DNA of 64,000 nt, from the NCBI GenBank assembly GCA_002788675.1, contig PFRS01000001.1, positions 106,204 through 170,203 on the forward strand. The letters are read 5' to 3'. The stretch comes from Candidatus Pacebacteria bacterium CG_4_9_14_0_2_um_filter_40_15. GTDB taxonomy: Bacteria > Patescibacteriota > Microgenomatia > UBA1400 > PJMF01. Shown here piece by piece: positions 37,907-55,014 of this stretch (its first letter is position 1; each line of letters opens with the position of its first letter). A program made the position numbers and the translations under genes. The notes below the pieces were generated by a model, which searched no databases, was not told the origin of the DNA, and saw nothing but the letters and a program-made list of their open reading frames with translations.

Positions 37907-38209
37907 GGTGGTATTTCTCCCAATGTTTGGATTACTCCCAGCCGGATTGCTGGAAGGGGCACGCGCATCAATGTAAGTAATTCGCGTGCGCCTTCCAGCA
38001 AAAAATATCTATGTTAATGAACTGTGCACGAGTTCCGAGCGCTACTGCTCTTCTTCAGGCACAATAAGAGAGATAGTATATAAGTAATACATCTATAAAT
38101 CAATCTAATATATCAATATTTTTTTGAAGTATACCTGAATCGCGAGAGATATCTCTACTCGGCAAAATGCATCACAAATGGTACAATTCGATAGTTAAAA
38201 CATAAAAGT

Positions 38210-38281
38210 AGGGCCGTAGTTCAGCGGTAGAATAGAGGTCTCCAAAACCTTTGACGGGGGTTCGATTCCCTTCGGCCCTGC
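38210..38281 (+). tRNA. trnW: tRNA-Trp (anticodon CCA)
   Basis: A cloverleaf with a perfect 7 bp acceptor stem, agggccg/cggccct, an anticodon loop ctCCAaa and a T-loop ttcgatt. Confidence 0.85.
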
Positions 38282-38333
38282 AGAATCCCATAGTATTCAT
38301 ACTATCTCCCTTTTCATATGATAAAATCAATAT

Positions 38334-38753
38334 ATGCAAAAAAAAGTAGATAAAGAATATTTAAATATTAGCTTTGTTGTTATTATTTTGGGCACACTTC
38401 TTCTGGGTGGTTACTATTTTAATAGCAAAAAGGTTGCGAGAATTATAAAAAACCCTGAAACAAAGATTTCTGACACAGAGTGGATATTCAATGAACCTAA
38501 AAATCTAGCAGTCTTTACAACGAAATCAATATTGAATTCTAAAGAAGACATTTTGTATGTAACACATGATTTTGATGATGGAGCTTGGCAATTTTTGCCT
38601 GGCTCTGTTGTTTCCACTGATGACAGCGCCATTATATCTTTAGAGGAGGCCGTAGCAATAGATCCAAGTATTCAAGAGCTGAATTTACTTCCTTTAGGTT
38701 CTAGTGCTCGAAGAGAATCAATCAATTCAAATTGGATCCTGTCTAACAACTAA
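38334..38753 (+). CDS. Hypothetical membrane-anchored protein (island cargo)
   Basis: A 139 aa ORF with an N-terminal transmembrane segment. Confidence 0.45.
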   Translation: MQKKVDKEYLNISFVVIILGTLLLGGYYFNSKKVARIIKNPETKISDTEWIFNEPKNLAVFTTKSILNSKEDILYVTHDFDDGAWQFLPGSVVSTDDSAIISLEEAVAIDPSIQELNLLPLGSSARRESINSNWILSNN

Positions 38754-38771
38754 AGCGTCAATTTCTTAGGC

Positions 38772-38806
38772 AGAAATAGGTTCTAACATCGTTCACTAGT
38801 CCCTGC
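38772..38806 (+). repeat. Island direct repeat, copy A (AAATAGGTTCTAACATCGTTCACTAGTCCCTGCAA)
   Basis: A near-identical roughly 33-35 bp sequence recurs after successive island genes. Its GGTTC...TTC...CCCTGCA core resembles the tRNA-Trp T-arm/acceptor 3' half. Confidence 0.7.
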
Positions 38807-38870
38807 AAAGTACACAACATAGCCTTCATTATCACTTGATAAATACTTTATTTAGCCTTATAATAACCTC

Positions 38871-39131
38871 ATGCAAACACAAACTACTCAAATTAGAGTC
38901 ACACTACCAGTGCAACTTCAAGGTTATTTACAGGCAAAAGCTAATAAATATGGACTTAGTCTGTCGGCCTACATCAGAAATTTAGTAATTAATGATGTTC
39001 AAGACGTTGAGCACCCTGTTTTTGAAATGTCTACTCAATCAGTTAATGATCTTCAGGAGGCTATTGCAGCCGAAAAAGCTGGAAAATTAGTTAGTACTGA
39101 TAATGTCAATCAGTTGCTCCAAGATTTGTAG
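38871..39131 (+). CDS. Ribbon-helix-helix antitoxin (RelB/ParD/CopG-like)
   Basis: An N-terminal RHH motif, IRVTLPVQLQGYLQAKANKYGLSLSAYIRNLV, in an 86 aa protein that sits 2 nt upstream of the toxin gene. Confidence 0.6.
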   Translation: MQTQTTQIRVTLPVQLQGYLQAKANKYGLSLSAYIRNLVINDVQDVEHPVFEMSTQSVNDLQEAIAAEKAGKLVSTDNVNQLLQDL

Positions 39132-39133
39132 CC

Positions 39134-39412
39134 ATGGAAATTTCGTTTTCCCCTAAATGTTTAAACCAATTGCAAAAGCTCAAGAAAGTAGATATCAAAT
39201 TGTTTACAAAAATCCAAAAGAAGTTAGCATTATTTGAGCAGAAATCAAATCATCCTTCATTACGGCTTCATAAGTTGAGCGGAGGACAAAGAGAAACCTG
39301 GAGTGTTTCTGTGGATATGTCATACCGACTACTCTTTTACTATAAACAAGATAAGAACCAGATGCAGGTTGTTTTTTTTAGTTTTGGAACTCATGATCAA
39401 GTGTATAAATAG
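39134..39412 (+). CDS. RelE/ParE-superfamily type II toxin
   Basis: A 92 aa protein whose HKLSGGQRETWSVSVDMSYRLLFYYKQDKNQMQVVFFSFGTHDQVY region matches the RelE/ParE core pattern (L.G....W..R....YR..Y.......i.vl.ig.H..Y). Confidence 0.65.
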   Translation: MEISFSPKCLNQLQKLKKVDIKLFTKIQKKLALFEQKSNHPSLRLHKLSGGQRETWSVSVDMSYRLLFYYKQDKNQMQVVFFSFGTHDQVYK

Positions 39413-39441
39413 GTTCTAACATCCTTCACTAGTCCCTGCAA
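39407..39441 (+). repeat. Island direct repeat, copy B
   Basis: taAATAGGTTCTAACATCCTTCACTAGTCCCTGCAA. The TAG inside the repeat is the toxin gene stop codon. Confidence 0.7.
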
Positions 39442-39446
39442 GATAG

Positions 39447-39474
39447 AAAACAACTCATTTGAGTTGTTTTTTTA
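39447..39474 (+). terminator. Intrinsic terminator after the toxin-antitoxin module
   Basis: A hairpin aacaactca-ttt-gagttgtt followed by ttttttt. Confidence 0.6.
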
Positions 39475-39584
39475 TCTTGAAGAATCGAGAGCGCATAACC
39501 CATGGTTCGCAATGCGAGTTATAAATAGTTCTTCCTCCAGTACGAGCATCTCACAGCACGCTCATCACAGATGAGTGTGCGAGA

Positions 39585-39603
39585 AGTCCCTCCGGCCCTG
39601 CAA
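39585..39603 (+). repeat. Near-exact copy of the tRNA-Trp 3' end (att-like core)
   Basis: AGTCCCTCCGGCCCTGCAA here matches the tRNA ATTCCCTTCGGCCCTGCAG at 16 of 18 positions. Confidence 0.6.
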
Positions 39604-39619
39604 AATATAAACTTCTGTA

Positions 39620-40027
39620 ATGAGCCAGAACAATGCTAAAATATCTTCTATGATGAAAATAATAAAAATCACACCTCTCTATTTCTCAGCCATATTCATG
39701 GCATCACTTCTAGTGAGTGGATGTACTACAAATAGTCCTAAAACTAACCCAACCACTCAAGAATACAATCTGCCTGTCGAAACGGAGGTTCAAGAAAATA
39801 TTGAAACTTCAATTGATACCGGTATGGTTGAATCGGATGCAACAGATTCTGGAACTGAGGTATCGCCAGAAAAAGTAGAAAATAGTTTTGAAGCATGTTC
39901 AAAAACCTACTATGACAGGTGTTATATTAATAACCCTAAAACAATAAATCAGCAACGATGTCTTGAGGGTATGAAAATAACAGTAAACATAAATTGCCCT
40001 GACACACCATATGGAACAAAGAAATAG
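39620..40027 (+). CDS. Small secreted lipoprotein (island cargo)
   Basis: A signal peptide with a LLVSGCTT lipobox, in a 135 aa Cys-containing protein. Confidence 0.5.
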   Translation: MSQNNAKISSMMKIIKITPLYFSAIFMASLLVSGCTTNSPKTNPTTQEYNLPVETEVQENIETSIDTGMVESDATDSGTEVSPEKVENSFEACSKTYYDRCYINNPKTINQQRCLEGMKITVNINCPDTPYGTKK

Positions 40028-40052
40028 GTTCAATTTATTCTTCCGCTACAGA
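40022..40052 (+). repeat. Island direct repeat, copy C (degenerate)
   Basis: AAATAGGTTCAATTTATTCTTCCGCTACAG. The stop codon TAG lies inside it. Confidence 0.45.
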
Positions 40053-40462
40053 AAACACCAGGGTTTCAAGCCTTGGGATGAATGGCAGTTGAGGCGAAAG
40101 CCGAAACTGCTATCTAGTATACTTGATGCATGACTAGAAAATATTGGACGGGAGCTCATACAACACATCGGTTGAGATTTCATATCGTACTTTTACCAAA
40201 ATATCGCAAATTTTAGGGACATATCAAAAGAAAAATTATTACATTTATTTGTGAAAAAAACGTATAGAAAATAGTGTGGGAAGATTTGGGACTGGTTGAC
40301 TACTCTACTGCCCCTCACTACAAATCAGATCACCCAGAATCAACATTTATTGATACATCTGTCGCCTATTTTGTAAAAAATAATATGCCGTTTAAGACTT
40401 TGCGAGATGGGGATGTTTTGATTTTGCAAGACTCTCAGTTAAAAAAGTAAGCATGCCTTTCA

Positions 40463-41065
40463 CTACTGCATAACTCGCTCAAAAAAAGAAATCGCAACAT
40501 CACTACTTTGCCTGGTGACCGCCGCGTACACGAATACACACATAAATATCAAATCAATAAATAAGCCAGCAATTGCATACGAAAACGTCACAAAAACAAT
40601 CCTCTTTACCCAAGGTGCAATCCACTGTCCAACTTTGTCGTACTTTCCTCTTAAAAAATAGACTATGTCGCTGACACCCGAGAGTGGTATTTGAAAAACA
40701 AAAAGTAAGTAGGCCAAGTTCCGAAACACTTTCCACCCCTCAATCAGATCTGGTCTAAAGTTGTAAGAACCAGAGTAAATGCTCGAGAGTCTAAAATGGA
40801 AAAAAATTGTTACCACAATCAGCGCTGGAGCAAAAAAGCCAGTTGCTTTCCCTAGTAAAAACCCAGGAAGTGTAAAAAATCGTTCTAAAGAAGCTTTACC
40901 ACTTTCTACTATAGATCGATTTTTATTAGCAGATTGTACCGTCAGGTACTCTCGATACTCAAGAAACTGTTTTTTTAACGAAAATGCTATCATGAATACT
41001 AGTATACCAGGGTTATAAAAAAATCTACCCGGAACAAAGGCCCGGCAGAGATCTAAATTATGCAC
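40463..41065 (-). CDS. Polytopic membrane protein, unknown function
   Basis: A 200 aa ORF with several hydrophobic helices. It is the only minus-strand gene in the island. Confidence 0.45.
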   Translation of the reverse strand: MHNLDLCRAFVPGRFFYNPGILVFMIAFSLKKQFLEYREYLTVQSANKNRSIVESGKASLERFFTLPGFLLGKATGFFAPALIVVTIFFHFRLSSIYSGSYNFRPDLIEGWKVFRNLAYLLFVFQIPLSGVSDIVYFLRGKYDKVGQWIAPWVKRIVFVTFSYAIAGLFIDLIFMCVFVYAAVTRQSSDVAISFFERVMQ

Positions 41066-41146
41066 ACCTTTCTGAAAAAACCTTACAAAAAAAAGATTAT
41101 TCTTGACTAGAATGATATACTATAGGTACTAAAAACAAATAGTTAT

Positions 41147-42022
41147 ATGAACACACAAGCAATTATCCGCGAAAATACACAAAGAACATACCTATACATG
41201 TTTCTTTTGATACTAATCCTTGGCACTATCGGACATGGTCTCTCTAGTTTTTTTGAAGTAGGGCTCACCGGAACAAGCACATTTATTATTACTTCTCTGC
41301 TTATAAACGTAGTTGCCTTCTTTTTTTCTGATAAAATCATTTTACGTACCGTCGGAGCAAAAAAATTAGACAAAACAGTTGCTCCAGACTTTGTAGAACT
41401 TGTTGCCAATCTGGCAAATAATCAGAATCTGCCCCAACCAAAACTCTACTACATGGATACTGATGCTATGAACGCGTTTGCCACTGGTAGAGATCAAAAA
41501 CATTCAGCAGTAGTAATCACCCGAGGATTACTCGAAAAAATGAAGCAAAATGAAGTTGAAGCAGTAGTTGCTCACGAACTTGCACACATCAAGTACCTTG
41601 ATGTTCGACTAATGACCATTGTTACCGTGCTTGCAGGGCTTCTTACTCTGCTATCTGATATGTTCTGGTACAGCAATGTTGCTCAAAAAGCATCTGAGAG
41701 AGATAACTCTGGCTCAGTACAGATGATTGGTATGGCCCTGGCACTTTTTGCTCCATTTACGGCACTCCTTATTCAAAATGCGATCTCTCGAAAAAGAGAA
41801 TATATTGCTGATGCGGCAGCATCAGACATGATTGGATCAAGTCACCCTCTTATCGAAGCACTCGAAAAGATCAGAAGAGATCAGATCCCTTTACCAGGAT
41901 CGCAGGCTGCAACAGCTCACTTGTTTTTCTCACAACCATCAAAAGATGGCTTTATTGAAAAGCTCTTCTCTACCCATCCTCCTCTAGAAGAACGTATTGA
42001 ACAGTTAAAGAAACTAGCTTGA
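41147..42022 (+). CDS. htpX: HtpX-like M48 zinc metalloprotease
   Basis: Transmembrane helices followed by the HExxH motif in VAHELAHIKYLD and a downstream glutamate (EYIADAAA). Confidence 0.75.
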   Translation: MNTQAIIRENTQRTYLYMFLLILILGTIGHGLSSFFEVGLTGTSTFIITSLLINVVAFFFSDKIILRTVGAKKLDKTVAPDFVELVANLANNQNLPQPKLYYMDTDAMNAFATGRDQKHSAVVITRGLLEKMKQNEVEAVVAHELAHIKYLDVRLMTIVTVLAGLLTLLSDMFWYSNVAQKASERDNSGSVQMIGMALALFAPFTALLIQNAISRKREYIADAAASDMIGSSHPLIEALEKIRRDQIPLPGSQAATAHLFFSQPSKDGFIEKLFSTHPPLEERIEQLKKLA

Positions 42023-42687
42023 AAGGGCATATGCCTAAAAAAGAAGCAGCAGTAAAAACTATACAAATGGGTAGCAAGGTTGAAGAAAAAGTCCCTTGCT
42101 CAGAATGCAAAAAAGAAGTTGGAGCCCAGGAGCGACATGTCTTCAAAGGAAAAAGTAATACTGATATCTATTATTGTGACAGTTGTGTAGAAAAAATTAA
42201 TGAAGCATTGGCAAATGAAACAAAAAATCCAAACATTATTAAAGCAGTGCTTGTCGGTGCAATGGCTGGATTCATCGGAACGATAGGATGGTATCTCTTT
42301 GTAATACTTACCCAATATCAAATTGGCTATATTGGCATCGCCCTTGGCTGGCTTATTGGTACAGCGTATGTCAAAGGTGCTGGCGAAAAACGTGGACACC
42401 AACTCCAGCTACTAGCTGCAATAACAACACTCATTTCCCTACTTGGAGCTGATTTATTCATTTTTACACATTTTAGTGCAGAATACTTTAATTCTGAATT
42501 TGGTATACAAGTTTCTAGCTTAGATATTATTCTGAGTTTCTTAGTTGATAATACTGAAGGTATGCGTTCACTATTTTTACAAGACTTTTTGTCTTCTGTA
42601 GCATCACCGATTGGATTACTTATCTGGGGAATTTCTATCTTCACTGCGTACAGCATTCCAAAGCCACGCGTGCTATCAACAAAATAG
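42019..42687 (+). CDS. Zinc-ribbon membrane protein, translationally coupled to htpX
   Basis: An N-terminal CSECKK...CDSC zinc ribbon and four or five transmembrane helices. The ATGA overlap with the htpX stop indicates translational coupling. Confidence 0.5.
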   Translation: MKGHMPKKEAAVKTIQMGSKVEEKVPCSECKKEVGAQERHVFKGKSNTDIYYCDSCVEKINEALANETKNPNIIKAVLVGAMAGFIGTIGWYLFVILTQYQIGYIGIALGWLIGTAYVKGAGEKRGHQLQLLAAITTLISLLGADLFIFTHFSAEYFNSEFGIQVSSLDIILSFLVDNTEGMRSLFLQDFLSSVASPIGLLIWGISIFTAYSIPKPRVLSTK

Positions 42688-42716
42688 GTTCGAACATCCT
42701 TCACTAATCACTGCAA
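42682..42716 (+). repeat. Island direct repeat, copy D
   Basis: AAAATAGGTTCGAACATCCTTCACTAATCACTGCAA. The stop TAG lies inside it. Confidence 0.65.
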
Positions 42717-42744
42717 AATCCTATAGTATAATTACTATATTTAC

Positions 42745-43386
42745 TTGATTTCTAGTACTACAGTAATAAGTATGAAAAAGAAAAACAAAATATCCTTATT
42801 AGTTCTACTAATTATTTCTTTGGTATCGATATCAACATATTTATTTTTTAATAGAGATAATACTAAGATAATAAACACAACAGTATCAAATTCAATTTAT
42901 AAAGAACATGATACTAGTTTTTCAATTCAATACCCAAAAATATGGACATATGTTTCATATTATTATGATACTCACATTAACTCAGGAAAAACTAAACGCA
43001 TTGCATTTAGACCCATAGATCTTGAATTAATTGATGAAGAGTATGGAACTATTTTGGTTAGTGAATTTACTAATGTAGAATAAAAAGATCTTTCAACATT
43101 TATAAGTAACTATTTTTGTTATGAACCAGGGAACTGTTTAGATATTGATAATTTCATTCCTCGATCAGTATCTAATTTACCTGCAGTATCAATTGAGAAT
43201 TTTGAAGGTCCACTTCCATCAGGAGACGTCGTGTTTATGGATGGAAATTCATTTTATATATTCTCAATAATATATGAAGGCAGTTATGACAAAGAAACTG
43301 GTGAATATGTGGGTAAATCAGAAGATGACATTGCTAATAAATTAGTATTCGAGGAAATGTTGTCTTCATTCATTAGAACAAAATAG
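42745..43386 (+). pseudogene. Secreted/membrane-anchored hypothetical gene interrupted by an in-frame TAA at 43081-43083
   Basis: The reading frame continues without a plausible restart for another 100 codons, ending at a TAG that is embedded in repeat copy E. The first part has an N-terminal transmembrane segment. Confidence 0.45.
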
Positions 43387-43414
43387 GTTCTAACTTCGTT
43401 CACTAGTCCCTGCA
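43381..43414 (+). repeat. Island direct repeat, copy E
   Basis: AAATAGGTTCTAACTTCGTTCACTAGTCCCTGCA. Confidence 0.7.
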
Positions 43415-43473
43415 TTTCCGTGATATATTTACTTAGAAATAAAATAAGTTGTTAATTATTACAGGAAGAAACT

Positions 43474-43791
43474 ATGAAACCCGAGGGAAATCCAATTAGT
43501 TCAGAGCAAGAGTATGTAAGTCAGAATTATCCAACTCTTAATTCTGCTGAATATGTTGTTGGATTTGAAGATGTACTTCCGATTTATTCAGCTCAAAAAT
43601 TTGGCGAAAAAATTGAAGTTAGTGGGCAAGGTATGAGTGGAGGTACATTCTATTTAAGTGATCACATGTTACCAGATCAATCCATTCCTGACGATTTTGT
43701 GGAAAATTTTCGTCAATATAAAGTAATTCAGCGTGTAGTAAAAGTGCAAGGAATTATGCGCTTTCATAAATATCGAATTGAAAAGGAATAG
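43474..43791 (+). CDS. Hypothetical protein (island cargo)
   Basis: A 105 aa ORF preceded by a GGAAG-type ribosome binding site. Confidence 0.45.
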   Translation: MKPEGNPISSEQEYVSQNYPTLNSAEYVVGFEDVLPIYSAQKFGEKIEVSGQGMSGGTFYLSDHMLPDQSIPDDFVENFRQYKVIQRVVKVQGIMRFHKYRIEKE

Positions 43792-43820
43792 GTTCAAATA
43801 TCTTTAAATTGTCCTATAAC
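43786..43820 (+). repeat. Island direct repeat, copy F (degenerate)
   Basis: GGAATAGGTTCAAATATCTTTAAATTGTCC, with the stop TAG inside. Confidence 0.4.
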
Positions 43821-43926
43821 TATTGATTTTTTACAAATTTCTCTATATAATACAATTGCCTTACTAATTAATAGCTCAATGAAGCATTGAATATATTAAT
43901 TAAATGTATAAGGCTGAGGCAGAGAA

Positions 43927-44007
43927 ATGAAAAAGCAAAGTCCAATCTTTTGGTGTTTTGTATTCATATTTTTCTTGAGTCTATGTATGCTTTTTTTGCC
44001 TGCATAG
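43927..44007 (+). CDS. Small hydrophobic peptide (26 aa)
   Basis: MKKQSPIFWCFVFIFFLSLCMLFLPA, followed by a hairpin at 44017-44044. Confidence 0.3.
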   Translation: MKKQSPIFWCFVFIFFLSLCMLFLPA

Positions 44008-44053
44008 ACTTATTTAGGGGCTAGAGATAGTACAATCTAGCCCCAATATTTTC

Positions 44054-44089
44054 AAAATAAGTTTTAACACGCTTCATTAGTCACTGCAA
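44054..44089 (+). repeat. Island direct repeat, copy G (degenerate)
   Basis: AAAATAAGTTTTAACACGCTTCATTAGTCACTGCAA. Confidence 0.5.
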
Positions 44090-44133
44090 TTACAACAAAA
44101 TGGTATACTCACTCTTAATTAAAGTGGGAAAGT

Positions 44134-44484
44134 ATGATTAAAAAGATTTTACAATTACTATTCTTTGTTCTCTCCCCATTTGCATCGCTCTTGTTTTTAA
44201 CTCCAATCACAATGATTCCTGCTGTTATGGTAGGTAAAATAGTAACTGCCAATGAGTGCGGGAATGCTGTGGGTGAAAGCCTCTGTGGTTTAGGAACAAT
44301 CGCACTGATAGTGTTTGGACTTAATGCCATTGTTGGCGTTATTGTTGTAATTTTATTACATTTAGAAATGAATAAGACATTCAGTTATAATAAGAAAGTT
44401 GCTAGCTCTTTAGTACTATTTACTTACTTTCTTATTGTCGCTGCAGCTTTTCTGTATTTTGTAGCAATTGATATATATACCTAA
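44134..44484 (+). CDS. Small polytopic membrane protein
   Basis: A 116 aa ORF with three hydrophobic helices. Confidence 0.45.
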   Translation: MIKKILQLLFFVLSPFASLLFLTPITMIPAVMVGKIVTANECGNAVGESLCGLGTIALIVFGLNAIVGVIVVILLHLEMNKTFSYNKKVASSLVLFTYFLIVAAAFLYFVAIDIYT

Positions 44485-44758
44485 GAAAACAAAATATAAA
44501 AGTTTGTTTGTGAAAAAGAGTATCTGAATCAAATCATGTTTTTAACGATGCAGTCTATTTAACTAGACTGATTCAGCTTAAGAACGTGTTAGAAGTTATC
44601 GACACAGCAAGAAATGGCATGCAGAATAACCCTTCACTTGAAACTGCTTGTCAAACGATATTGGGTATTGAGGGGGCAAGGCATGCTTTATCAGCTTTAT
44701 ATCCTTTGGGGGTTGGTCCCCTGAGTGATTATTTTGATATTCGTTGAAAACGTACTGT

Positions 44759-44795
44759 AAAAAGACTTTGGATTAATCCAGAGTCTTTTTTTTCT
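44759..44795. terminator. Bidirectional intrinsic terminator
   Basis: A hairpin agactttggatt/aatccagagtct flanked by aaaaa and tttttttt. Confidence 0.6.
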
Positions 44796-44819
44796 TTACT
44801 ACTCTGTAAAGAATTAACT

Positions 44820-45110
44820 TTAAACTAAAGTCGCAAGAATTCTTTTCAATTCAGTAACTTTTTCACTTGGCCCAGATACATTAAATCTGAACCTACTTGA
44901 ACGCGGAAATTCACGTTTGAAAGTTATTGCTAAACCATGTTCTTGAGCATAATCAGTTAACAATTGAATTGTCTCTGATCGCTTATTTCGAAGACCTTTT
45001 CCTTCTATAACAAAATCTTCTGTTCTTTCTGGTTTTATTAAATCTTCAATCCTAGCAGTTTGTTCCTCTAAAAATTGAGCAGCCTTTGCAGATAAATCAC
45101 CTTCTCTCAT
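44820..45110 (-). CDS. Hypothetical protein
   Basis: A 96 aa ORF. Confidence 0.4.
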   Translation of the reverse strand: MREGDLSAKAAQFLEEQTARIEDLIKPERTEDFVIEGKGLRNKRSETIQLLTDYAQEHGLAITFKREFPRSSRFRFNVSGPSEKVTELKRILATLV

Positions 45111-45398
45111 ACATTTTTCCTATCTAATTTATTTTAATTCTAACTCTATACTACCACGTACTGGAAAGTTTGCGGTAAATATAAATTTAAACGCCATACC
45201 GTTCCTCATGCTACAATCGCAAGTGCTCTAAAACTACTTATCTCGAATTTCTCACTCGTCATTCTTTAGACTTTTTTTAATCCCATAATATTTACTTTTT
45301 GTCTATTCCATGCTATAATTTCTCTGTCTCTATTCTGGCAGAATACAAATCATAGCGTTTTTTTTCTGCTAAATACGTGGAGACAAAGGAGAAACACT

Positions 45399-45494
45399 AT
45401 GTCCCGAGGAGTAGTATTACTTATTCTCTTTCTTATTTTCATTGGGCTAGTAGCCGCAACTTGGCTACTCACAAATATGTGGTGGCCCGCCTAA
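45399..45494 (+). CDS. Small hydrophobic peptide (31 aa) with a strong Shine-Dalgarno sequence
   Basis: AAGGAG lies 6 nt upstream of the ATG. The peptide is MSRGVVLLILFLIFIGLVAATWLLTNMWWPA. Confidence 0.4.
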   Translation: MSRGVVLLILFLIFIGLVAATWLLTNMWWPA

Positions 45495-45619
45495 ACAAAA
45501 AAGTCCTGAGCATGACTTCAAATAAAGGCTCACTTTTCCTTCAATACTGTGTACTAAAATGCTAAGCTTTCTTAGCTACACCTCATACTGCTGCAACTCT
45601 CCATGCTACAATCGTATGT

Positions 45620-46090
45620 ATGCAGAAACTACTTATCTCGGACTTTTCGCAGGTCCTTCTCTTCCCCAAGACAATTTCGTATTCTGGCTCACTCAACAAA
45701 CTCTACAATCAGGTAGTAGCCGAAAAACAGAACTTTGAAGATTTTTATATTCTTAATGAACCATTACTCACAGAGCTACAAAAATTAGAGGTAGAAAAAG
45801 TTATCTTTACTACTGGCACAGTTCAGAATGCCCCAGAAATTAGGAGCAAAGTACAGGCAGTCTTCAAAAAAATATTTACCGTGCCCATGATAGGAATCCA
45901 AAAAACTAACAGTGAGGCCTACACAAGAATTTGTGAAGAACTTAATACTGATCCGGCGAATGCACTCTTTATTGATGATACTCAGGCAAATGTCTCAGCA
46001 GCCCAGCAGGCAGGACTACAAGCAGTTGTCTACGAAAATAACGCTCAAATTCTAAGCGCAATTGAAAGTTGGATCCGCAATGATACATAA
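45620..46090 (+). CDS. HAD-like hydrolase (degenerate motif I)
   Basis: A C-terminal LFIDDTQANVSAAQQAGLQAVV HAD motif. The N-terminal motif I reads SDFS instead of DxDG. Confidence 0.5.
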   Translation: MQKLLISDFSQVLLFPKTISYSGSLNKLYNQVVAEKQNFEDFYILNEPLLTELQKLEVEKVIFTTGTVQNAPEIRSKVQAVFKKIFTVPMIGIQKTNSEAYTRICEELNTDPANALFIDDTQANVSAAQQAGLQAVVYENNAQILSAIESWIRNDT

Positions 46091-46505
46091 ATCTGTGGTT
46101 ACTGGCGTACTGGTCTCTAAAGATGACAAAGTTCTCTTGGTAAAAAAACCAGATGGTGTCGGTCCTTATGCCGGAATGTACCTAACCCCTGGCGGTGGTG
46201 TAAAGACAGGAGAACCAGCTGACAAAGCTGCACTTCGTGAACTCTATGAAGAAACTGGTGTTAACGTAACCGACTTACAGCGCCTAGGTTTTGATGACGC
46301 TGTCACTGCTAACTGGAAAGGCGTTGAGACCCACTACATCATGTTGCTGTATACAGCCAAGTATCTAGCTGGCGATCTGGCACCCACTGAAGGTGATGAT
46401 GATCACCTTGCAGTCATTAAATGGTTTTCTAAAGAAGAGCTACAGAAGTTACCACTCTCGCCTCCTCTTAAAAAACTACTACTTTCACTCGGATATCTGT
46501 CTTAG
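46080..46505 (+). CDS. NUDIX hydrolase
   Basis: Nudix box GGGVKTGEPADKAALRELYEETGV. Confidence 0.75.
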   Translation: MIHKSVVTGVLVSKDDKVLLVKKPDGVGPYAGMYLTPGGGVKTGEPADKAALRELYEETGVNVTDLQRLGFDDAVTANWKGVETHYIMLLYTAKYLAGDLAPTEGDDDHLAVIKWFSKEELQKLPLSPPLKKLLLSLGYLS

Positions 46506-46585
46506 TACTAGGTCCTAAAATTACGGGTGTATCTTTCAAAAAGCCAACTATTCCCAAAAGGGATGTACTATGCCTATAATGTGAT

Positions 46586-47056
46586 ATGATTTTACAACCA
46601 GAAACTCTTTCTCAAGATGTCTTAGCCTTCATGCGCAAAACCTCAATTATGTCAGCTGCCATTAATGGCGCTCCTCCTATTTCTACTGTGCTGCTCTTTA
46701 CAGTCGATGATGACTTCACAATGTATTTTGCTACCTTAGAAGGTAGCTATAAAGTACGTGGACTCCAAAAGGACGGTCAAATGTCGATTGCTATTTGGGA
46801 ACATCATGAGCTCTACTTACAGGGATCTGGCGTTGCGAGTATTGTTGCAGACCCAAACAAAGTAACCAAAATTGTTGATCGCCTCGCCGACTCTGCGGTA
46901 AATATTGCAGACTTTTGGCCACCAGTACTGCAAATAAAAGGTCATGACTATGTAGTCTTTGAGCTCAAACTGTCCTGGCTTCGAGCGCGTGACCTTTCAG
47001 ATACTACAATAGTAGAAAAGACAACAAAATTTATGGAGGTACCTCTAGATGAGTAA
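46586..47056 (+). CDS. Pyridoxamine 5'-phosphate oxidase-like FMN-binding protein
   Basis: A split-barrel family pattern of about 150 aa, with general-stress-protein-26-like motifs. Confidence 0.5.
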   Translation: MILQPETLSQDVLAFMRKTSIMSAAINGAPPISTVLLFTVDDDFTMYFATLEGSYKVRGLQKDGQMSIAIWEHHELYLQGSGVASIVADPNKVTKIVDRLADSAVNIADFWPPVLQIKGHDYVVFELKLSWLRARDLSDTTIVEKTTKFMEVPLDE

Positions 47057-47420
47057 AATTCTAATCGCCGAAGACGATCTTTTCCTAGGAAAAATTGCTG
47101 TCAAGAAACTAGAAAAAGAAAATTTTGAAGTCAACTTCTTAATATCAGGTGAAACTGTCCTTGAGCAAGCAAAGTTATTTAAACCAGATGCTATTGTTCT
47201 CGATCTTATCATGCCAGAAAAAGATGGGTTTGAGGCTCTAGTTGAACTCAAAAGTGAGAGTTTAACAAAGGACATTCCTGTTATTATTCTTACAGCATTA
47301 AGTTCACCCGAAGATCAAGAAAAAGTTAAAAAAATTGGGGCTGAACACTTTTTCATTAAGTCTGATATAGAACTTTCTGATCTTACTGCTTACTTACATA
47401 AGCTAGTTGATACTAAATAG
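47049..47420 (+). CDS. Stand-alone response-regulator receiver domain
   Basis: ILIAEDD, a phospho-acceptor Asp in VLDLIMP and ILTA...K motifs. There is no output domain. Confidence 0.75.
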   Translation: MSKILIAEDDLFLGKIAVKKLEKENFEVNFLISGETVLEQAKLFKPDAIVLDLIMPEKDGFEALVELKSESLTKDIPVIILTALSSPEDQEKVKKIGAEHFFIKSDIELSDLTAYLHKLVDTK

Positions 47421-47466
47421 AGTCTCCGCTATCACTGATTCGAAAAAATGAGTATACTGACAGTAT

Positions 47467-48783
47467 ATGCCAGAACTTTTTGACCAATTCCTCATAAAAT
47501 CGCTTAAAGAAGACAAGCAATTTCTTGAAAAAACTGCATTACCCATCATAACGGTGTCCAGTTCATATAAAGAAGACCTCAAAGAAATGCATGGATTTCC
47601 AGGAAGAGATGATACGCCAGATATTGTATTCTCACGAGCTCACTACTCGATGGCTCTAGCTATTGGCATGCAAGCATGGGGTACAAAAATTGATCATGCA
47701 AAAGCTTGGATCCTCGATCCCACAAACTACGTTTCAAAAAAAGATTGGAAATCGATTGTCTTTACCGAAGAAGTTGGTAAAGTTATCGCTCGCCATGGCA
47801 TTCTAAGAACCATTAAATCTATCATCGACAAATTTGGTAGAAGCAAGTTACCCATTCTTGATAGCATCACCCCACCTCTCTTGTACGTCACTAAAGACAT
47901 ATCCCAACCGATTCTGTCTTTTCACATTGCTGCAGGAAATATTCTCGGCCCCCAAGGTAAGACTGTGGTGCAAGTCGTGACCGACCCACATGTTCGAGAT
48001 GAATACGTCACCAACGCTTTTAGAAAAAATATGTATTTCTGTGTTTTTGATGAAATAACTAAAACTGAGTTCCTCGAAAAAGCCGCAATTATGAATATAA
48101 AAGCTGATCCACAACGCATTTTTGTGACTGGAGCACCAATCGATCCACGCACACTTAAGGCTGGTGCCAAAAAAGTGCCACACCGCAGCGGCGTACTGAA
48201 ACTCTGCATCACGACCGGTGGGTTGGGAACAAACAAAAATGAACTGCTCGAGATACTAACACAACTGCTTCCTGAGCTTCGTCGAAAAACACAAAAGTAT
48301 GCTTTGGTCGTATACTGCGCAACACACGACGACATTTTTGAAGCTGTACTCAAGCTTGCAAAAGAGAACCATATATCAGTAGGAATTGAAACTGACACAA
48401 AGGCTCCACTCCGCGTGCTCTATCATCCACAAATTGTTGACGCAAATGAAAAACTTCAGAAATATGGCTTTCCATGGGCTGATGGATTTATAACTAAACC
48501 TTCCGGAGATATGGCCTATGATGCCACTGCAGCTGGTAGCTTTGTGCTTACTTTGGCTGAATGGGGTCCATGGGAGGAACGCATTCGAGAAATTTTTGAA
48601 CAAAAACAAATTAGCAGGCAGCTCGTGCTTGAATCAGTAGTTCCACAGTTGGAAAGTCTTATGGACAGCAGAAACCAACCACACTCATGGATCGAACAAG
48701 CAATGCGGAATGCTCAGTCACTCCCAACGTCACTTACTCACGGGGCTCAACACATCATTGATGTGATGAAAAAGGTAAAATAA
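47467..48783 (+). CDS. Putative GT28-family (MGDG synthase/MurG-like) glycosyltransferase
   Basis: A two-domain Rossmann-like organisation with VTGAPIDP and ITTGGLG motifs, at low confidence. Confidence 0.4.
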   Translation: MPELFDQFLIKSLKEDKQFLEKTALPIITVSSSYKEDLKEMHGFPGRDDTPDIVFSRAHYSMALAIGMQAWGTKIDHAKAWILDPTNYVSKKDWKSIVFTEEVGKVIARHGILRTIKSIIDKFGRSKLPILDSITPPLLYVTKDISQPILSFHIAAGNILGPQGKTVVQVVTDPHVRDEYVTNAFRKNMYFCVFDEITKTEFLEKAAIMNIKADPQRIFVTGAPIDPRTLKAGAKKVPHRSGVLKLCITTGGLGTNKNELLEILTQLLPELRRKTQKYALVVYCATHDDIFEAVLKLAKENHISVGIETDTKAPLRVLYHPQIVDANEKLQKYGFPWADGFITKPSGDMAYDATAAGSFVLTLAEWGPWEERIREIFEQKQISRQLVLESVVPQLESLMDSRNQPHSWIEQAMRNAQSLPTSLTHGAQHIIDVMKKVK

Positions 48784-49111: not shown

Positions 49112-49185
49112 ACTTACTTTCTTATCTTTTTCCAAGATGCGTATTATATCAAAATTTATAGAGGACGTAAATACGCCCATTCTTG

Positions 49186-49258
49186 AGCCACCTCGGGGAT
49201 TCGAACCCCGGACCTACGGTTTACAAAACCGTCGCTCTAACCAGCTGAGCTAAGGTGG
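49186..49258 (-). tRNA. trnT: tRNA-Thr (anticodon TGT)
   Basis: The minus strand reads GCCACCTTAGCTCAGCTGGTTAGAGCGACGGTTTTGTAAACCGTAGGTCCGGGGTTCGAATCCCCGAGGTGGCT, with an anticodon loop ttTGTaa. Confidence 0.85.
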
Positions 49259-49426
49259 CATTAGACTTCTTGCGAAATAAGCTTTGTAGCAATTTTGACA
49301 TATATTTGAGTACTTTTGAAGGCACTTACATGCGATAGTAGCCTGTGCTACTTGAGTATGTAAGTAACGCTCAAAAGTGCCAAATAGATGTCAAAGTACT
49401 GCGAATGTTATTTCGCAAAAAGTCTA

Positions 49427-49511
49427 TGGTGCCAGGTGTAGGATTCGAACCTACGAAGGCGAAGCCAGCAGATTTACAGTCTGCCCTCGTTGACCACTTG
49501 AGTAACCTGAC
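49427..49511 (-). tRNA. trnY: tRNA-Tyr (anticodon GTA) with a long variable arm and an encoded CCA
   Basis: The minus strand reads GTCAGGTTACTCAAGTGGTCAACGAGGGCAGACTGTAAATCTGCTGGCTTCGCCTTCGTAGGTTCGAATCCTACACCTGGCACCA. Confidence 0.8.
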
Positions 49512-49592
49512 AGTATCCTGTTTCAGATGAAACAGTGTCGTTTGAATTATATCATCTCCTCTGCAGGAGCCTAAATGCAATTTCAAACACTG

Positions 49593-49664
49593 AGCCGAAG
49601 ACGGGAATCGAACCCGTGACCCCCATCTTACCAAGATGGTGCTCTACCACTGAGCCACTTCGGC
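49593..49664 (-). tRNA. trnT: tRNA-Thr (anticodon GGT)
   Basis: The minus strand reads GCCGAAGTGGCTCAGTGGTAGAGCACCATCTTGGTAAGATGGGGGTCACGGGTTCGATTCCCGTCTTCGGCT. Confidence 0.85.
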
Positions 49665-53208: not shown

Positions 53209-55014
53209 ATGAAAAAAAGCACTCGATCATTCCTACAAAAACCATCAACAACTGGCGTCCTCATTGGAGTACTCGCCGTTGCATTTAGTGTGGTTGGACT
53301 CTTACTTGTCCAAACTCCTCTCGAAAAACCACAAGACGTTCGCCGCCAAGCCTCTATAGATAATGGCGAAGTTACTGTTTCACATACTGTCACACCAGAT
53401 AACAGTGTTGTTGGCACAGAATCAACAATACTTTTTGCTGTAAATACTGCTGGAATCCCAACTGATGGAATTCAAGTGCTCTTTAATGTGGTCACAGATA
53501 CCTTTGACACCATGACAGCCGACATCGAGACTGGCACAGGTTTACAAAGTGCAGGTACTCAAGTTGAGCGAACTGCAGATGGCTTCCTCGTGCAAGCACT
53601 CGCACTTCCAGCTCAGATTGGTCAACCTTTTATAACAACAGATGCTGTTTCACCAGTCTTTTTACGAGTGAAGTTCACTCCAACTAAAGCAGGAACAGTG
53701 GCCTTTAACTTTGACCGTGAGGAATCAATTTCAATTCTGCATGACAGTAATCCTCTCGAGGATAAACTGAATCATATTGCTGCCTTCCAGATTGCAGTTG
53801 CTACACAACCTGGCACCAGCCCAAGCCCGTCACCATCGACAAGCCCATCTCCAACCCCAGCAGTAACTCCTAGCCCAAGTCCAACCCCCGCTGTTGGAGG
53901 CATCAATGTAGTGAGCTGTAATGCTGTCTGCTCGAGCAATGCTGAGTGTGGCATTAACCAACGCTGTTACAGTGTTGATGGCACAAATCGTTGCCGCTTA
54001 GCTGTAAATCCAACCAATGACCGCTGTATCACTGCTGAAACTGGACCTAACTATAGTTGTAATCATGGTTGTGCAGATACTCACGAGTGTAGTACCGGTC
54101 TCACCTGTTGGTACAACAAGTGTCGAGAACCACTTAATGTTGAAAGTACCAGTTGTGCTTCTCTCACAACAACTCAGACAGCAAGTCTAGTTGCTAGTTG
54201 TAATGTTACCTGTAGTGCAAATGCAGACTGTGACATCAACCTTCGCTGTTACCAAGGTGCCTGTCGTCTCGCTACAAATCCAAGTAGTTCTACTTGCAGT
54301 GCTGCTACAGCACCTACTATTTCGAAAACCTATACGGCACCAAAGGGTGGAGCCGCTGCCAACGATACAACTAAGAAAGCTGCAAGTGCTCAACTTCCAT
54401 CTGATGCAAAAGATGCAAGCACATCAGCTGGAGCTGTCGGAGCCACCGCTTCTGCTAAACCTTCAGCTGCAACCACCATTCAGGATCAAATGAAGGAAAA
54501 CACAGAAAAAATTGCTCAGGAAGAAGCAATTGTTGCAAACGAAAGTGCCCTGGATGTACTCCTAAAAATGCTGAAAACTCCAGACTCAGCTCTGCCACTC
54601 ATAATTATTGGGGCAGGCATTGGACTCCTCATCCTCGCTCTCATCATTATTTTCATCCGCAGAATGATGGCAGGATCTGACAAACCAACTTCACAATCAG
54701 GTGGTTCTACAAGCACCCCAACTGTACAACCTAAACCAGAGCCTGTGGTTTCTCGAACAGATCTAGGTACACCACTTACTACTGCTCGCAGCATGACCAC
54801 GCCAACTGCAAGTATGCCAACACAGCATACACTGCAACAGCAGTCGGCCAGATCTCAAGCAGCCACACCATTAGCCCAAGCTGCTAGTCCTCATGCTATG
54901 CCACCAGCTACAACACAACCGGCCGCCAGTGGTGATTCGAGCATGCTCCAACGAATGAAAAACAAAGGAATAGCGCTACCAAATAGTTCAACTGAGCCAC
55001 CAAAACAATCGTAA
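53209..55014 (+). CDS. Type-I membrane surface protein with a Pro/Ser/Thr linker, three Cys-rich repeats and a long low-complexity C-terminal tail
   Basis: A signal peptide is followed by a roughly 190 aa beta-rich domain and a TSPSPSPSTSPSPTPAVTPSPSPTP linker. Three repeats of about 40 aa each, with 6-8 Cys (CNAVCSSNAECGINQRCY...), come next. They are followed by a transmembrane helix (LIIIGAGIGLLILALIIIF) and a roughly 130 aa S/T/P/A/Q-rich tail. Confidence 0.6.
   Translation: MKKSTRSFLQKPSTTGVLIGVLAVAFSVVGLLLVQTPLEKPQDVRRQASIDNGEVTVSHTVTPDNSVVGTESTILFAVNTAGIPTDGIQVLFNVVTDTFDTMTADIETGTGLQSAGTQVERTADGFLVQALALPAQIGQPFITTDAVSPVFLRVKFTPTKAGTVAFNFDREESISILHDSNPLEDKLNHIAAFQIAVATQPGTSPSPSPSTSPSPTPAVTPSPSPTPAVGGINVVSCNAVCSSNAECGINQRCYSVDGTNRCRLAVNPTNDRCITAETGPNYSCNHGCADTHECSTGLTCWYNKCREPLNVESTSCASLTTTQTASLVASCNVTCSANADCDINLRCYQGACRLATNPSSSTCSAATAPTISKTYTAPKGGAAANDTTKKAASAQLPSDAKDASTSAGAVGATASAKPSAATTIQDQMKENTEKIAQEEAIVANESALDVLLKMLKTPDSALPLIIIGAGIGLLILALIIIFIRRMMAGSDKPTSQSGGSTSTPTVQPKPEPVVSRTDLGTPLTTARSMTTPTASMPTQHTLQQQSARSQAATPLAQAASPHAMPPATTQPAASGDSSMLQRMKNKGIALPNSSTEPPKQS

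Follow-up and report, generated by a model that had tools for sequence, protein, structure and literature searches.

A probable integron-like cassette array at the 3' end of a tRNA-Trp gene in Candidatus Pacebacteria, with stop codons embedded in its repeat

Several neighbouring genes in the genome of Candidatus Pacebacteria bacterium CG_4_9_14_0_2_um_filter_40_15, an ultrasmall member of the Patescibacteriota, end on a TAG triplet that forms part of a conserved repeat, and this raises the question as to what kind of genetic element joins coding sequences to a repeat in such a way. The DNA that was analysed, referred to here as the window, is a 64-kb stretch of contig PFRS01000001.1, and all coordinates refer to positions within it. 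The repeat, AAATAGGTTCnAACATCCTTCACTAGTCCCTGCAAA, is 36 nucleotides (nt) long and occurs in five intact and two decayed copies, all on the forward strand, between 38.7 and 44.1 kb. It consists of a module of about 28 nt, (A)AAATAGGTTCnAACATCCTTCACTAG(T), followed by a short block equal to the last bases of a transfer RNA (tRNA) gene, here CCCTGCA. The tRNA gene in question is that for tRNA-Trp, which lies directly upstream of the array in the same orientation and has a 3' end, GGTTCGATTCCCTTCGGCCCTGCA, that resembles the repeat. We consider that small gene cassettes have probably been inserted here by site-specific recombination at the very last bases of the tRNA-Trp gene to give an integron-like array, with a recombinase that is not linked to it.

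The repeat copies were identified in different ways. Its 29-nt core GTTCnAACATCCTTCACTAGTCCCTGCAA has four near-exact matches in the window compared with none expected, and a position matrix that was derived exclusively from other genomes yielded five copies, starting at 38774, 39407, 42682, 43381 and 44055, all on the forward strand and with none elsewhere in the 64 kb. Two further decayed or truncated copies were recognised by eye, one at 40022 of which just about 12 nt remain and a degenerate one at 43786. The 10-mer AAATAGGTTC alone, with one mismatch permitted, is not significantly enriched (8 occurrences in the window for 6.1 expected). The array region has a G+C content of 32-38% as against about 41% in its flanks.

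The original prediction held that at least five units use the TAG of the repeat as the stop codon of the upstream open reading frame (ORF), with Lys usually as the last codon, and both statements were confirmed for the window. The ORFs ending at 39412, 40027, 42687, 43386 and 43791 all terminate on the repeat, their last codons being, in this order, Lys, Lys, Lys, Lys and Glu. One of them, 42745-43386, is broken by an in-frame TAA at 43081-43083 and is probably a true pseudogene rather than the product of a sequencing error, since gene calls in independent assemblies of the species are also split at this point. The ORF upstream of the first copy (38774) ends on a TAA of its own, which lies 21 nt ahead of the repeat, and the copy at 44055, which is preceded by no long ORF, reads TAA in place of TAG.

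Outside the window, the repeat was found in 20 loci of a species-representative genome collection and on 46 metagenome contigs, using a search pattern from which the TAG bases had been left out. Nearly all of these loci are labelled, or recognisable, as Patescibacteria, including Pacebacteria, Woesebacteria, Saccharibacteria and Parcubacteria; a few repeat-bearing metagenome-assembled genomes (MAGs) carry the labels Pseudomonadales or Gammaproteobacteria and their gene content is likewise of the small-genome type. The repeat is nearly identical across distant Patescibacteria lineages, with conservation extending from -5 to +30 relative to GGTTC, and the unsearched AAATA bases are conserved at 81-97%. 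Arrays in these genomes are also co-oriented, with up to eight copies, the repeat is always in the sense direction of the ORFs and, in 13 distinct loci, an array lies directly downstream of a tRNA-Trp gene and in the same direction. Moreover, the strict pattern gave no match in viral contigs and blastn gave none in the phage or plasmid collections. A looser pattern produced seven viral matches and these were read as chance occurrences, since all of them lack both the GG prefix and a nearby tRNA gene; a phage or plasmid origin was rejected.

Two of these loci show additional features. In L074 (9560-10320) a toxin-antitoxin cassette lies between two decayed modules, with no tRNA-Trp gene within 10 kb, and it could be a relocated fragment of an array or a secondary insertion site. 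In L019 (3681-6650), a two-cassette unit of 1732 bp occurs twice in tandem on a contig of 1.08 Mb, which could reflect either a true duplication through the repeats or an assembly artefact.

For the statistics of the stop codons, 61 non-redundant copies of the tRNA-Trp type were taken from the window and the 66 other loci, after removal of near-duplicates, and upstream ORFs of at least 50 codons were considered. TAG or TAA occupies position -2 in 52 of the 61 copies, and the nearest upstream ORF stops exactly at this TAG position in 21 of 58 cases, with a binomial P of about 1e-16 even when a chance rate of 1 in 30 is assumed. Sixteen of these 21 ORFs have Lys as their last codon, and nine more ORFs end 3-10 nt upstream, often by means of a TAA which overlaps the A-run of the repeat. 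Repeat stops in the other two frames terminate just one and two ORFs, respectively. The coincidence of gene ends with the repeat is non-random and general beyond the window. The embedded stop is restricted to the tRNA-Trp family of repeats; the families associated with tRNA-Asn, transfer-messenger RNA (tmRNA), tRNA-Gly and tRNA-Asp read AAACAGG.

The C-termini of homologous proteins were then compared for two cargo genes, as the original prediction had proposed. For the putative RelE/ParE-like toxin encoded at 39134-39412, close relatives (92 amino acids (aa), 55-88% identity, about 30 clusters) end in ...GTHxxVYK, one of them ending in VYD, and the stop codon is the TAG of the repeat in all three relatives for which DNA was read, namely the window, L074 and L075. 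More distant homologues end in VY-stop, VYKE, VYRK and similar sequences, and two that were read at non-array loci, L077 and L080, use a TGA or TAA of their own and lack the repeat. The 222-aa protein encoded at 42019-42687 ends in ...PRVL-STK-TAG, and in all eight clusters of distant homologues (38-45% identity) the protein ends three residues sooner; two homologues that were read outside arrays, still beside an M48 peptidase gene, also carry their own TGA or TAA and no repeat. Outside arrays, then, homologues of both genes have stop codons of their own, shorter C-termini and no repeat, and the refutation test of the original prediction left the observation standing. The product of ORF 43474-43791 is an orphan without homologues for comparison. 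From these C-termini and stops outside arrays, it appears that the cassette genes lost their own stops and employ that of the module.

An explanation at the RNA level has to be considered here, whereby the repeat would be a signal in the 3' untranslated region (acting in processing, stability or translation coupling) with ribosomes stopping at its edge, and the array would have arisen by ordinary duplication or rearrangement. The repeat lies tight against ORF ends, is always in the sense orientation, contains a pyrimidine-rich stretch CAUCCUUCAC and is strikingly unstructured, every shuffled version folding at least as well. In integrons, translation up to the attC site raises the expression of the next cassette (PMC11511950), so that selection on the position of the stop is plausible. 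We nevertheless regard this explanation as unlikely, given that the module lacks the TAG in its Asn, tmRNA, Gly and Asp forms and that no Rfam family matches the repeat, thresholds being reached by tRNAs alone. It also leaves the composition of the repeat unexplained, as follows.

The first 20 or so nucleotides of the core, GGTTCnAACrTCnTTCACTA, are common to all copies and the last 7-12 nt fall into families. Within a family, this terminal block is identical to the last bases of whichever tRNA or tmRNA gene lies closest upstream in the same orientation, and intact genes for tRNA-Trp, Asn, Gly and Asp and for tmRNA were located directly upstream of arrays, and in the same direction, with ARAGORN. 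The terminal blocks are:

tRNA-Trp: CCCTGCA(AA)
tRNA-Asn: CGGAGCC
tmRNA: ATCTCCAC(A)
tRNA-Gly(CCC): TCCGCACAAAAA
tRNA-Asp: TCCCCGCA

An RNA-level signal provides no reason for these 7-12 nt to match a neighbouring tRNA or tmRNA gene. The module itself aligns best with the 3' ends of tRNA-Trp genes, which take the top six places among all tRNAs in the loci, and the tRNA-Trp of L028 matches it at 24 of 24 positions if 2+2+1 inserted bases are allowed in the module. Judged from these alignments, the module is a modified tRNA-Trp sequence, extending from the T-loop to the 3' end and carrying five extra bases, which has been reused at other targets by swapping the terminal block alone.

The boundaries of the cassettes can be seen where related arrays differ. 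Loci L037, L038, L052 and L025, which are Asn-type arrays from one metagenome set, share cassettes that are 97-100% identical beside different neighbours; the homology ends right after ...CGGAGC(C), and differing upstream cassettes carry differing modules while the downstream cassette stays the same. In L075 the 3' end of tRNA-Trp is joined directly to the leader of a toxin-antitoxin cassette which, in the window, follows repeat copy 1, and the sequences that follow the tRNA in L012 and L004 recur after repeats in other arrays. Furthermore, the window and its relative L012 have common flanks and a common tRNA gene with different cassettes between them. The homology breaks and leader junctions together define a cassette as a leader, one or more genes and a module, with exchange apparently taking place in the tRNA-identical block about 28 nt past the TAG; the tRNA itself shares just 7-12 identical nt with the repeat. 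Neither the direct joins between a tRNA 3' end and a cassette leader nor the break of homology at the terminal block is accounted for by an RNA-level signal.

These results bear on two further claims of the original prediction. That the boundary of the repeat is fused to the end of the coding sequence holds in so far as the TAG lies inside a conserved repeat which behaves as a recombination site, but the inferred point of exchange lies about 28 nt downstream of the TAG. Similarly, the repeat does supply the stop to cassette ORFs that have lost their own, but the resident array does not donate one to incoming genes, since the module with its variants travels with the upstream ORF and each cassette therefore brings its own TAG.

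On the interpretation that we favour, site-specific recombination at the tRNA 3' end, a cassette would start with a 5' leader of its own, in which a promoter is often present, and continue with one gene or a few, the end-module of about 28 nt and the terminal block. A recombinase encoded elsewhere in the genome would exchange strands within the tRNA-identical block, thereby keeping the tRNA gene intact and stacking cassettes in the manner of an integron with its attI and attC sites. The TAG itself simply belongs to the A/T-rich edge on the 5' side of tRNA-Trp-type modules. Compaction would then remove the spacer and often the gene's own stop, such that the ORF enters the module for one to three codons and ends on the TAG, as the C-termini of the homologues suggest, and selection for translation reaching the site, as in integrons (PMC11511950), may assist this fusion. 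A strong bias to one stop frame would follow, because fusion in that frame adds only Lys and in the other two frames eight or more residues.

A broader proposal is that Patescibacteria carry a phylum-wide, integron-like system of gene capture, in which a universal tRNA-Trp-derived module of about 28 nt is combined with an exchangeable address of 7-12 nt for retargeting to other tRNA genes or tmRNA, the recombinase is unlinked and the built-in TAG allows genes without stops to fuse to the module. We judge the chances of its being correct in full to be about even. A full-text literature search, with most subscription journals outside its coverage, revealed no description of such arrays in Patescibacteria.

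Several observations weigh against site-specific recombination of this kind. Neither the 64 kb of the window nor the 66 loci that bear the repeat yielded a tyrosine or serine recombinase, and the Pfam-annotated gene tables of L074-L089 list none; motif scans and jackhmmer runs with XerD and gamma-delta resolvase queries found nothing in the window or in 73 loci. The module has neither dyad symmetry nor a conserved right arm and, in this respect, is unlike the core site of a classical tyrosine recombinase, and its GGTTC lies 5 nt farther from the exchange block than in real tRNAs. Few junctions could be read at base resolution, all of them from metagenome assemblies, and the cassette shared by L025 and L052 differs inside the module, which fits either gene conversion or a second exchange point. 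Free circular cassettes were not found, and no locus has terminal direct repeats. Finally, among 24 contigs of the species no difference in array layout was seen, four having the same coordinates and the other 20 being grouped as similar, and present mobility has left no direct sign.

Some of these points would suit general homologous recombination, for example after natural transformation, with the 36-nt repeats and the tRNA gene serving as anchors and no dedicated recombinase involved. No recombinase gene is linked to any array, a repeat that is nearly identical across distant lineages is what anchors would require, and the difference within the module of the L025/L052 cassette would also be accommodated. 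Nevertheless, 36 nt is very short for RecA, the identity between tRNA and repeat is limited to 7-12 nt, and anchors need no terminal block matched to each tRNA. Moreover, in the junctions that were read the breakpoints are concentrated at the tRNA-identical block, and each module variant keeps to its upstream ORF. We therefore find this mechanism quite unlikely and retain site-specific exchange at the tRNA 3' end as the preferred explanation.

Gain or loss of cassettes between strains of this species was also considered, and no polymorphism was detected, the places shown for P0110 having one and the same layout. The window is 99.99% identical to the Candidatus Pacebacteria MAG GCA_009995335.1, and L084 and L085 are 99.97-99.99% identical to the window. 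Given this unchanged layout, together with the decayed copies and the pseudogene, the array looks old and static in this species. Its features, listed in order, are:

38210..38281, forward strand: tRNA-Trp(CCA) gene (ARAGORN, Rfam); the array begins at its 3' end, and its last bases, CCCTGCA, are the 3' block of every repeat
38334..38753, forward strand: ORF of cassette 1, 139 aa, with a weak Imm33-like match and its own TAA before the repeat
38774..38809, forward strand: repeat copy 1, comprising the module and the tRNA-identical block and scoring 60 of a possible 64 bits
38836..38864, forward strand: promoter-like site TTGATA-17-TATAAT of the toxin-antitoxin cassette, kept in the same cassette of other genomes
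38871..39131, forward strand: putative antitoxin, ribbon-helix-helix-like, 86 aa
39134..39412, forward strand: putative RelE/ParE-like toxin, 92 aa, with its final Lys codon and TAG inside repeat copy 2
39407..39442, forward strand: repeat copy 2 (sequence, core search and position matrix)
39523..39602, forward strand: degenerate AAATAG-TTC remnant, then an 11-bp hairpin (39556-39580), then a displaced tRNA-Trp 3' end TCCCTCCGGCCCTGCA (39587-39602)
39620..40027, forward strand: cassette ORF, 135 aa, lipoprotein-like, with the TAG of a truncated repeat as its stop
40022..40033, forward strand: truncated repeat, of which AAATAGGTTCAA remains
41147..42022, forward strand: M48 (HtpX-like) peptidase, also paired with the next gene in the non-array loci L082 and L083
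42019..42687, forward strand: zinc-ribbon membrane protein, 222 aa, with a C-terminal STK and TAG that are absent from the eight distant homologue clusters
42682..42717, forward strand: repeat copy, 53 bits (position matrix)
42745..43386, forward strand: cassette ORF with the in-frame TAA at 43081-43083, ending on the TAG of the repeat
43381..43416, forward strand: repeat copy, 49 bits (position matrix)
43474..43791, forward strand: orphan ORF of a cassette, 105 aa, with its stop supplied by the TAG of a degenerate repeat
43786..43821, forward strand: degenerate repeat GAATAGGTTCAAATATCTTTAAATTGTCC...
44055..44090, forward strand: last recognisable repeat, with TAA for TAG, 29 bits

In the relative L012, the 3' end of tRNA-Trp has exactly the sequence of the displaced element TCCCTCCGGCCCTGCA, whereas the resident tRNA differs from it and reads CCCTTCGG; the hairpin on the 5' side of the element has 11 perfectly paired base pairs. 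Together with the degenerate remnant, these features suggest an older, different insertion or a rearrangement at the tRNA gene. The 2.6-kb unit around 40130-40450 seems to hold gene fragments. At 40274-40450 the C-terminal portion of an S51 peptidase is matched weakly, and a 28-codon ORF, MTRKYWTGAHTTHRLRFHIVLLPKYRKF, at 40130-40216 resembles by eye the N-terminus of an IS200/IS605-type transposase; this assignment was rejected, as no Pfam or PDB sequence match was obtained.

With respect to the surroundings of the array, loci L003, L004, L014 and L075, which belong to other lineages, carry a gene for an uncharacterised protein of about 440 aa head-to-head with tRNA-Trp and near a tRNA Thr-Tyr-Thr cluster, with a gene for ribosomal protein L33 (rpmG) in addition in L075. 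In the window the counterparts, 47467-48783, an L33 gene and the tRNA genes at 49185-49664, lie beyond the far side of the array (region about 38150-47460). This gene order is consistent with an inversion of the segment comprising tRNA-Trp and the array, an arrangement that is common to the window and L012. Two repeats outside the array were also observed. In the case of the HAD-hydrolase gene 45620-46090, the promoter and 5' end (45602-45660) have a decayed duplicate at 45207-45265, 395 nt farther upstream (76% identity over 59 nt), and gene 53209-55014, for a large secreted protein, has an internal repeat of a Cys-rich motif at 53938-54252 (direct repeat D11, 282 nt apart).

The cargo of the arrays is diverse. 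Two types of toxin-antitoxin genes are common to several arrays, and Fic, GNAT, methyltransferase, HD and CYTH proteins, ABC and MacB transporters, an Na/H exchanger, amylase and peptidases are also encoded. Pfam scans of ten large cassette ORFs revealed cargo functions only. For the toxin in the window, the Pfam scores are below the curated cut-offs (21.9 bits for HigB-like and 21.0 bits for ParE-like); its homologues are named RelE/StbE or YafQ in the sources and have the common motifs HPSLRLHKL...GTHDxVY, and the 86-aa gene precedes it with a gap of 2 nt.

Such toxin-antitoxin cassettes also occur in chromosomal integrons and, since the cassettes here are co-oriented, mostly of a single gene and equipped with an end site that overlaps the stop codon, the array might be taken for a classical integron with unusually short attC sites, or for a group of such sites without an integrase (CALIN). 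The original prediction had contrasted the two on the ground that a classical attC begins downstream of the cassette stop, and this was mistaken: in most antibiotic-resistance cassettes attC overlaps the stop codon (PMC11511950). Folding of the repeat in the manner of attC was rejected: as single-stranded DNA, either strand has a minimum free energy of 0 kcal/mol, and the variants of the Asn and tmRNA families fold no better than shuffled sequences; since it does not fold as a single strand, the repeat is not an attC site. It contains no R''/L''-L'/R' palindrome, and what is conserved is its sequence and not a structure. Furthermore, no intI gene was detected in the window or the 66 repeat loci, the junctions involve the 3' terminus of tRNA or tmRNA genes rather than attI, and cassettes have their own promoter-like sites. 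Assignment to a classical integron or CALIN is thus highly improbable.

The resemblance of the array to integrons, including the sedentary chromosomal forms and CALINs, is nonetheless extensive. Both contain compact, co-oriented and mostly single-gene cassettes with diverse accessory cargo, including toxin-antitoxin genes, both place a site at the 3' end of each cassette that commonly overlaps the stop (PMC11511950), and in both the cassettes recur in different orders. The differences concern the site and its context. Integrons employ a folded imperfect palindrome, whereas the site here is a linear, unstructured sequence of 36 nt that is conserved across the phylum and the terminal 7-12 nt of which act as an address matching the target gene. 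In place of attI, the Pc promoter and IntI, it is a tRNA or tmRNA gene whose 3' end heads the array, with neither an integrase nor a Pc promoter adjacent, and several cassettes have promoter-like sites of their own.

A second comparison is with the tycheposons of Prochlorococcus, which also insert at the 3' ends of tRNA and tmRNA genes and keep the gene intact; in both systems repeated insertion generates variable islands that are punctuated by tRNA-derived repeats and contain remnants and degraded copies (bioRxiv 10.1101/2020.12.28.424599). Tycheposons encode their own integrase and are kilobases long, their repeats simply duplicate part of the local tRNA and their attachment sites are typically about 40 nt (bioRxiv 10.1101/2020.12.28.424599). 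Here, in contrast, the units are 0.3-2.7 kb with no integrase nearby, and the repeat is a modified 3' half of tRNA-Trp, which serves again at other tRNAs after a change in the last 7-12 nt alone. The array qualifies neither as an integron nor as a tycheposon-type island: it lacks both a linked integrase and a folded attC site, and its repeats do not simply copy the local tRNA.

The pdif sites of Acinetobacter plasmids are dyad-symmetric XerC/XerD sites of 28 bp that occur in alternating orientation. The modules that they delimit resemble the cassettes described here in being small, in including toxin-antitoxin genes, in having short conserved bounding sites and in relying on a recombinase that is presumably encoded elsewhere. 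The sites in the Patescibacteria arrays differ in that they are asymmetric, of one orientation, chromosomal and linked to tRNA genes, and their consensus has no visible inverted arms.

The genomes of Patescibacteria are tiny, and little is known about how these bacteria exchange genes. If the proposed cassette system at tRNA 3' ends is real, it would be a major source of their accessory genes, and its linear site with a short exchangeable target block would be attractive both for the study of mechanism and as a programmable tool for integration. The overlap of the stop codon with the site, as in integron cassettes, points to a common pressure on the joining of gene and site, which could be for compaction or for translation up to the site. 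The arrays would then constitute a second, independently evolved answer to the problem that integrons solve, that of capturing and stacking single genes.
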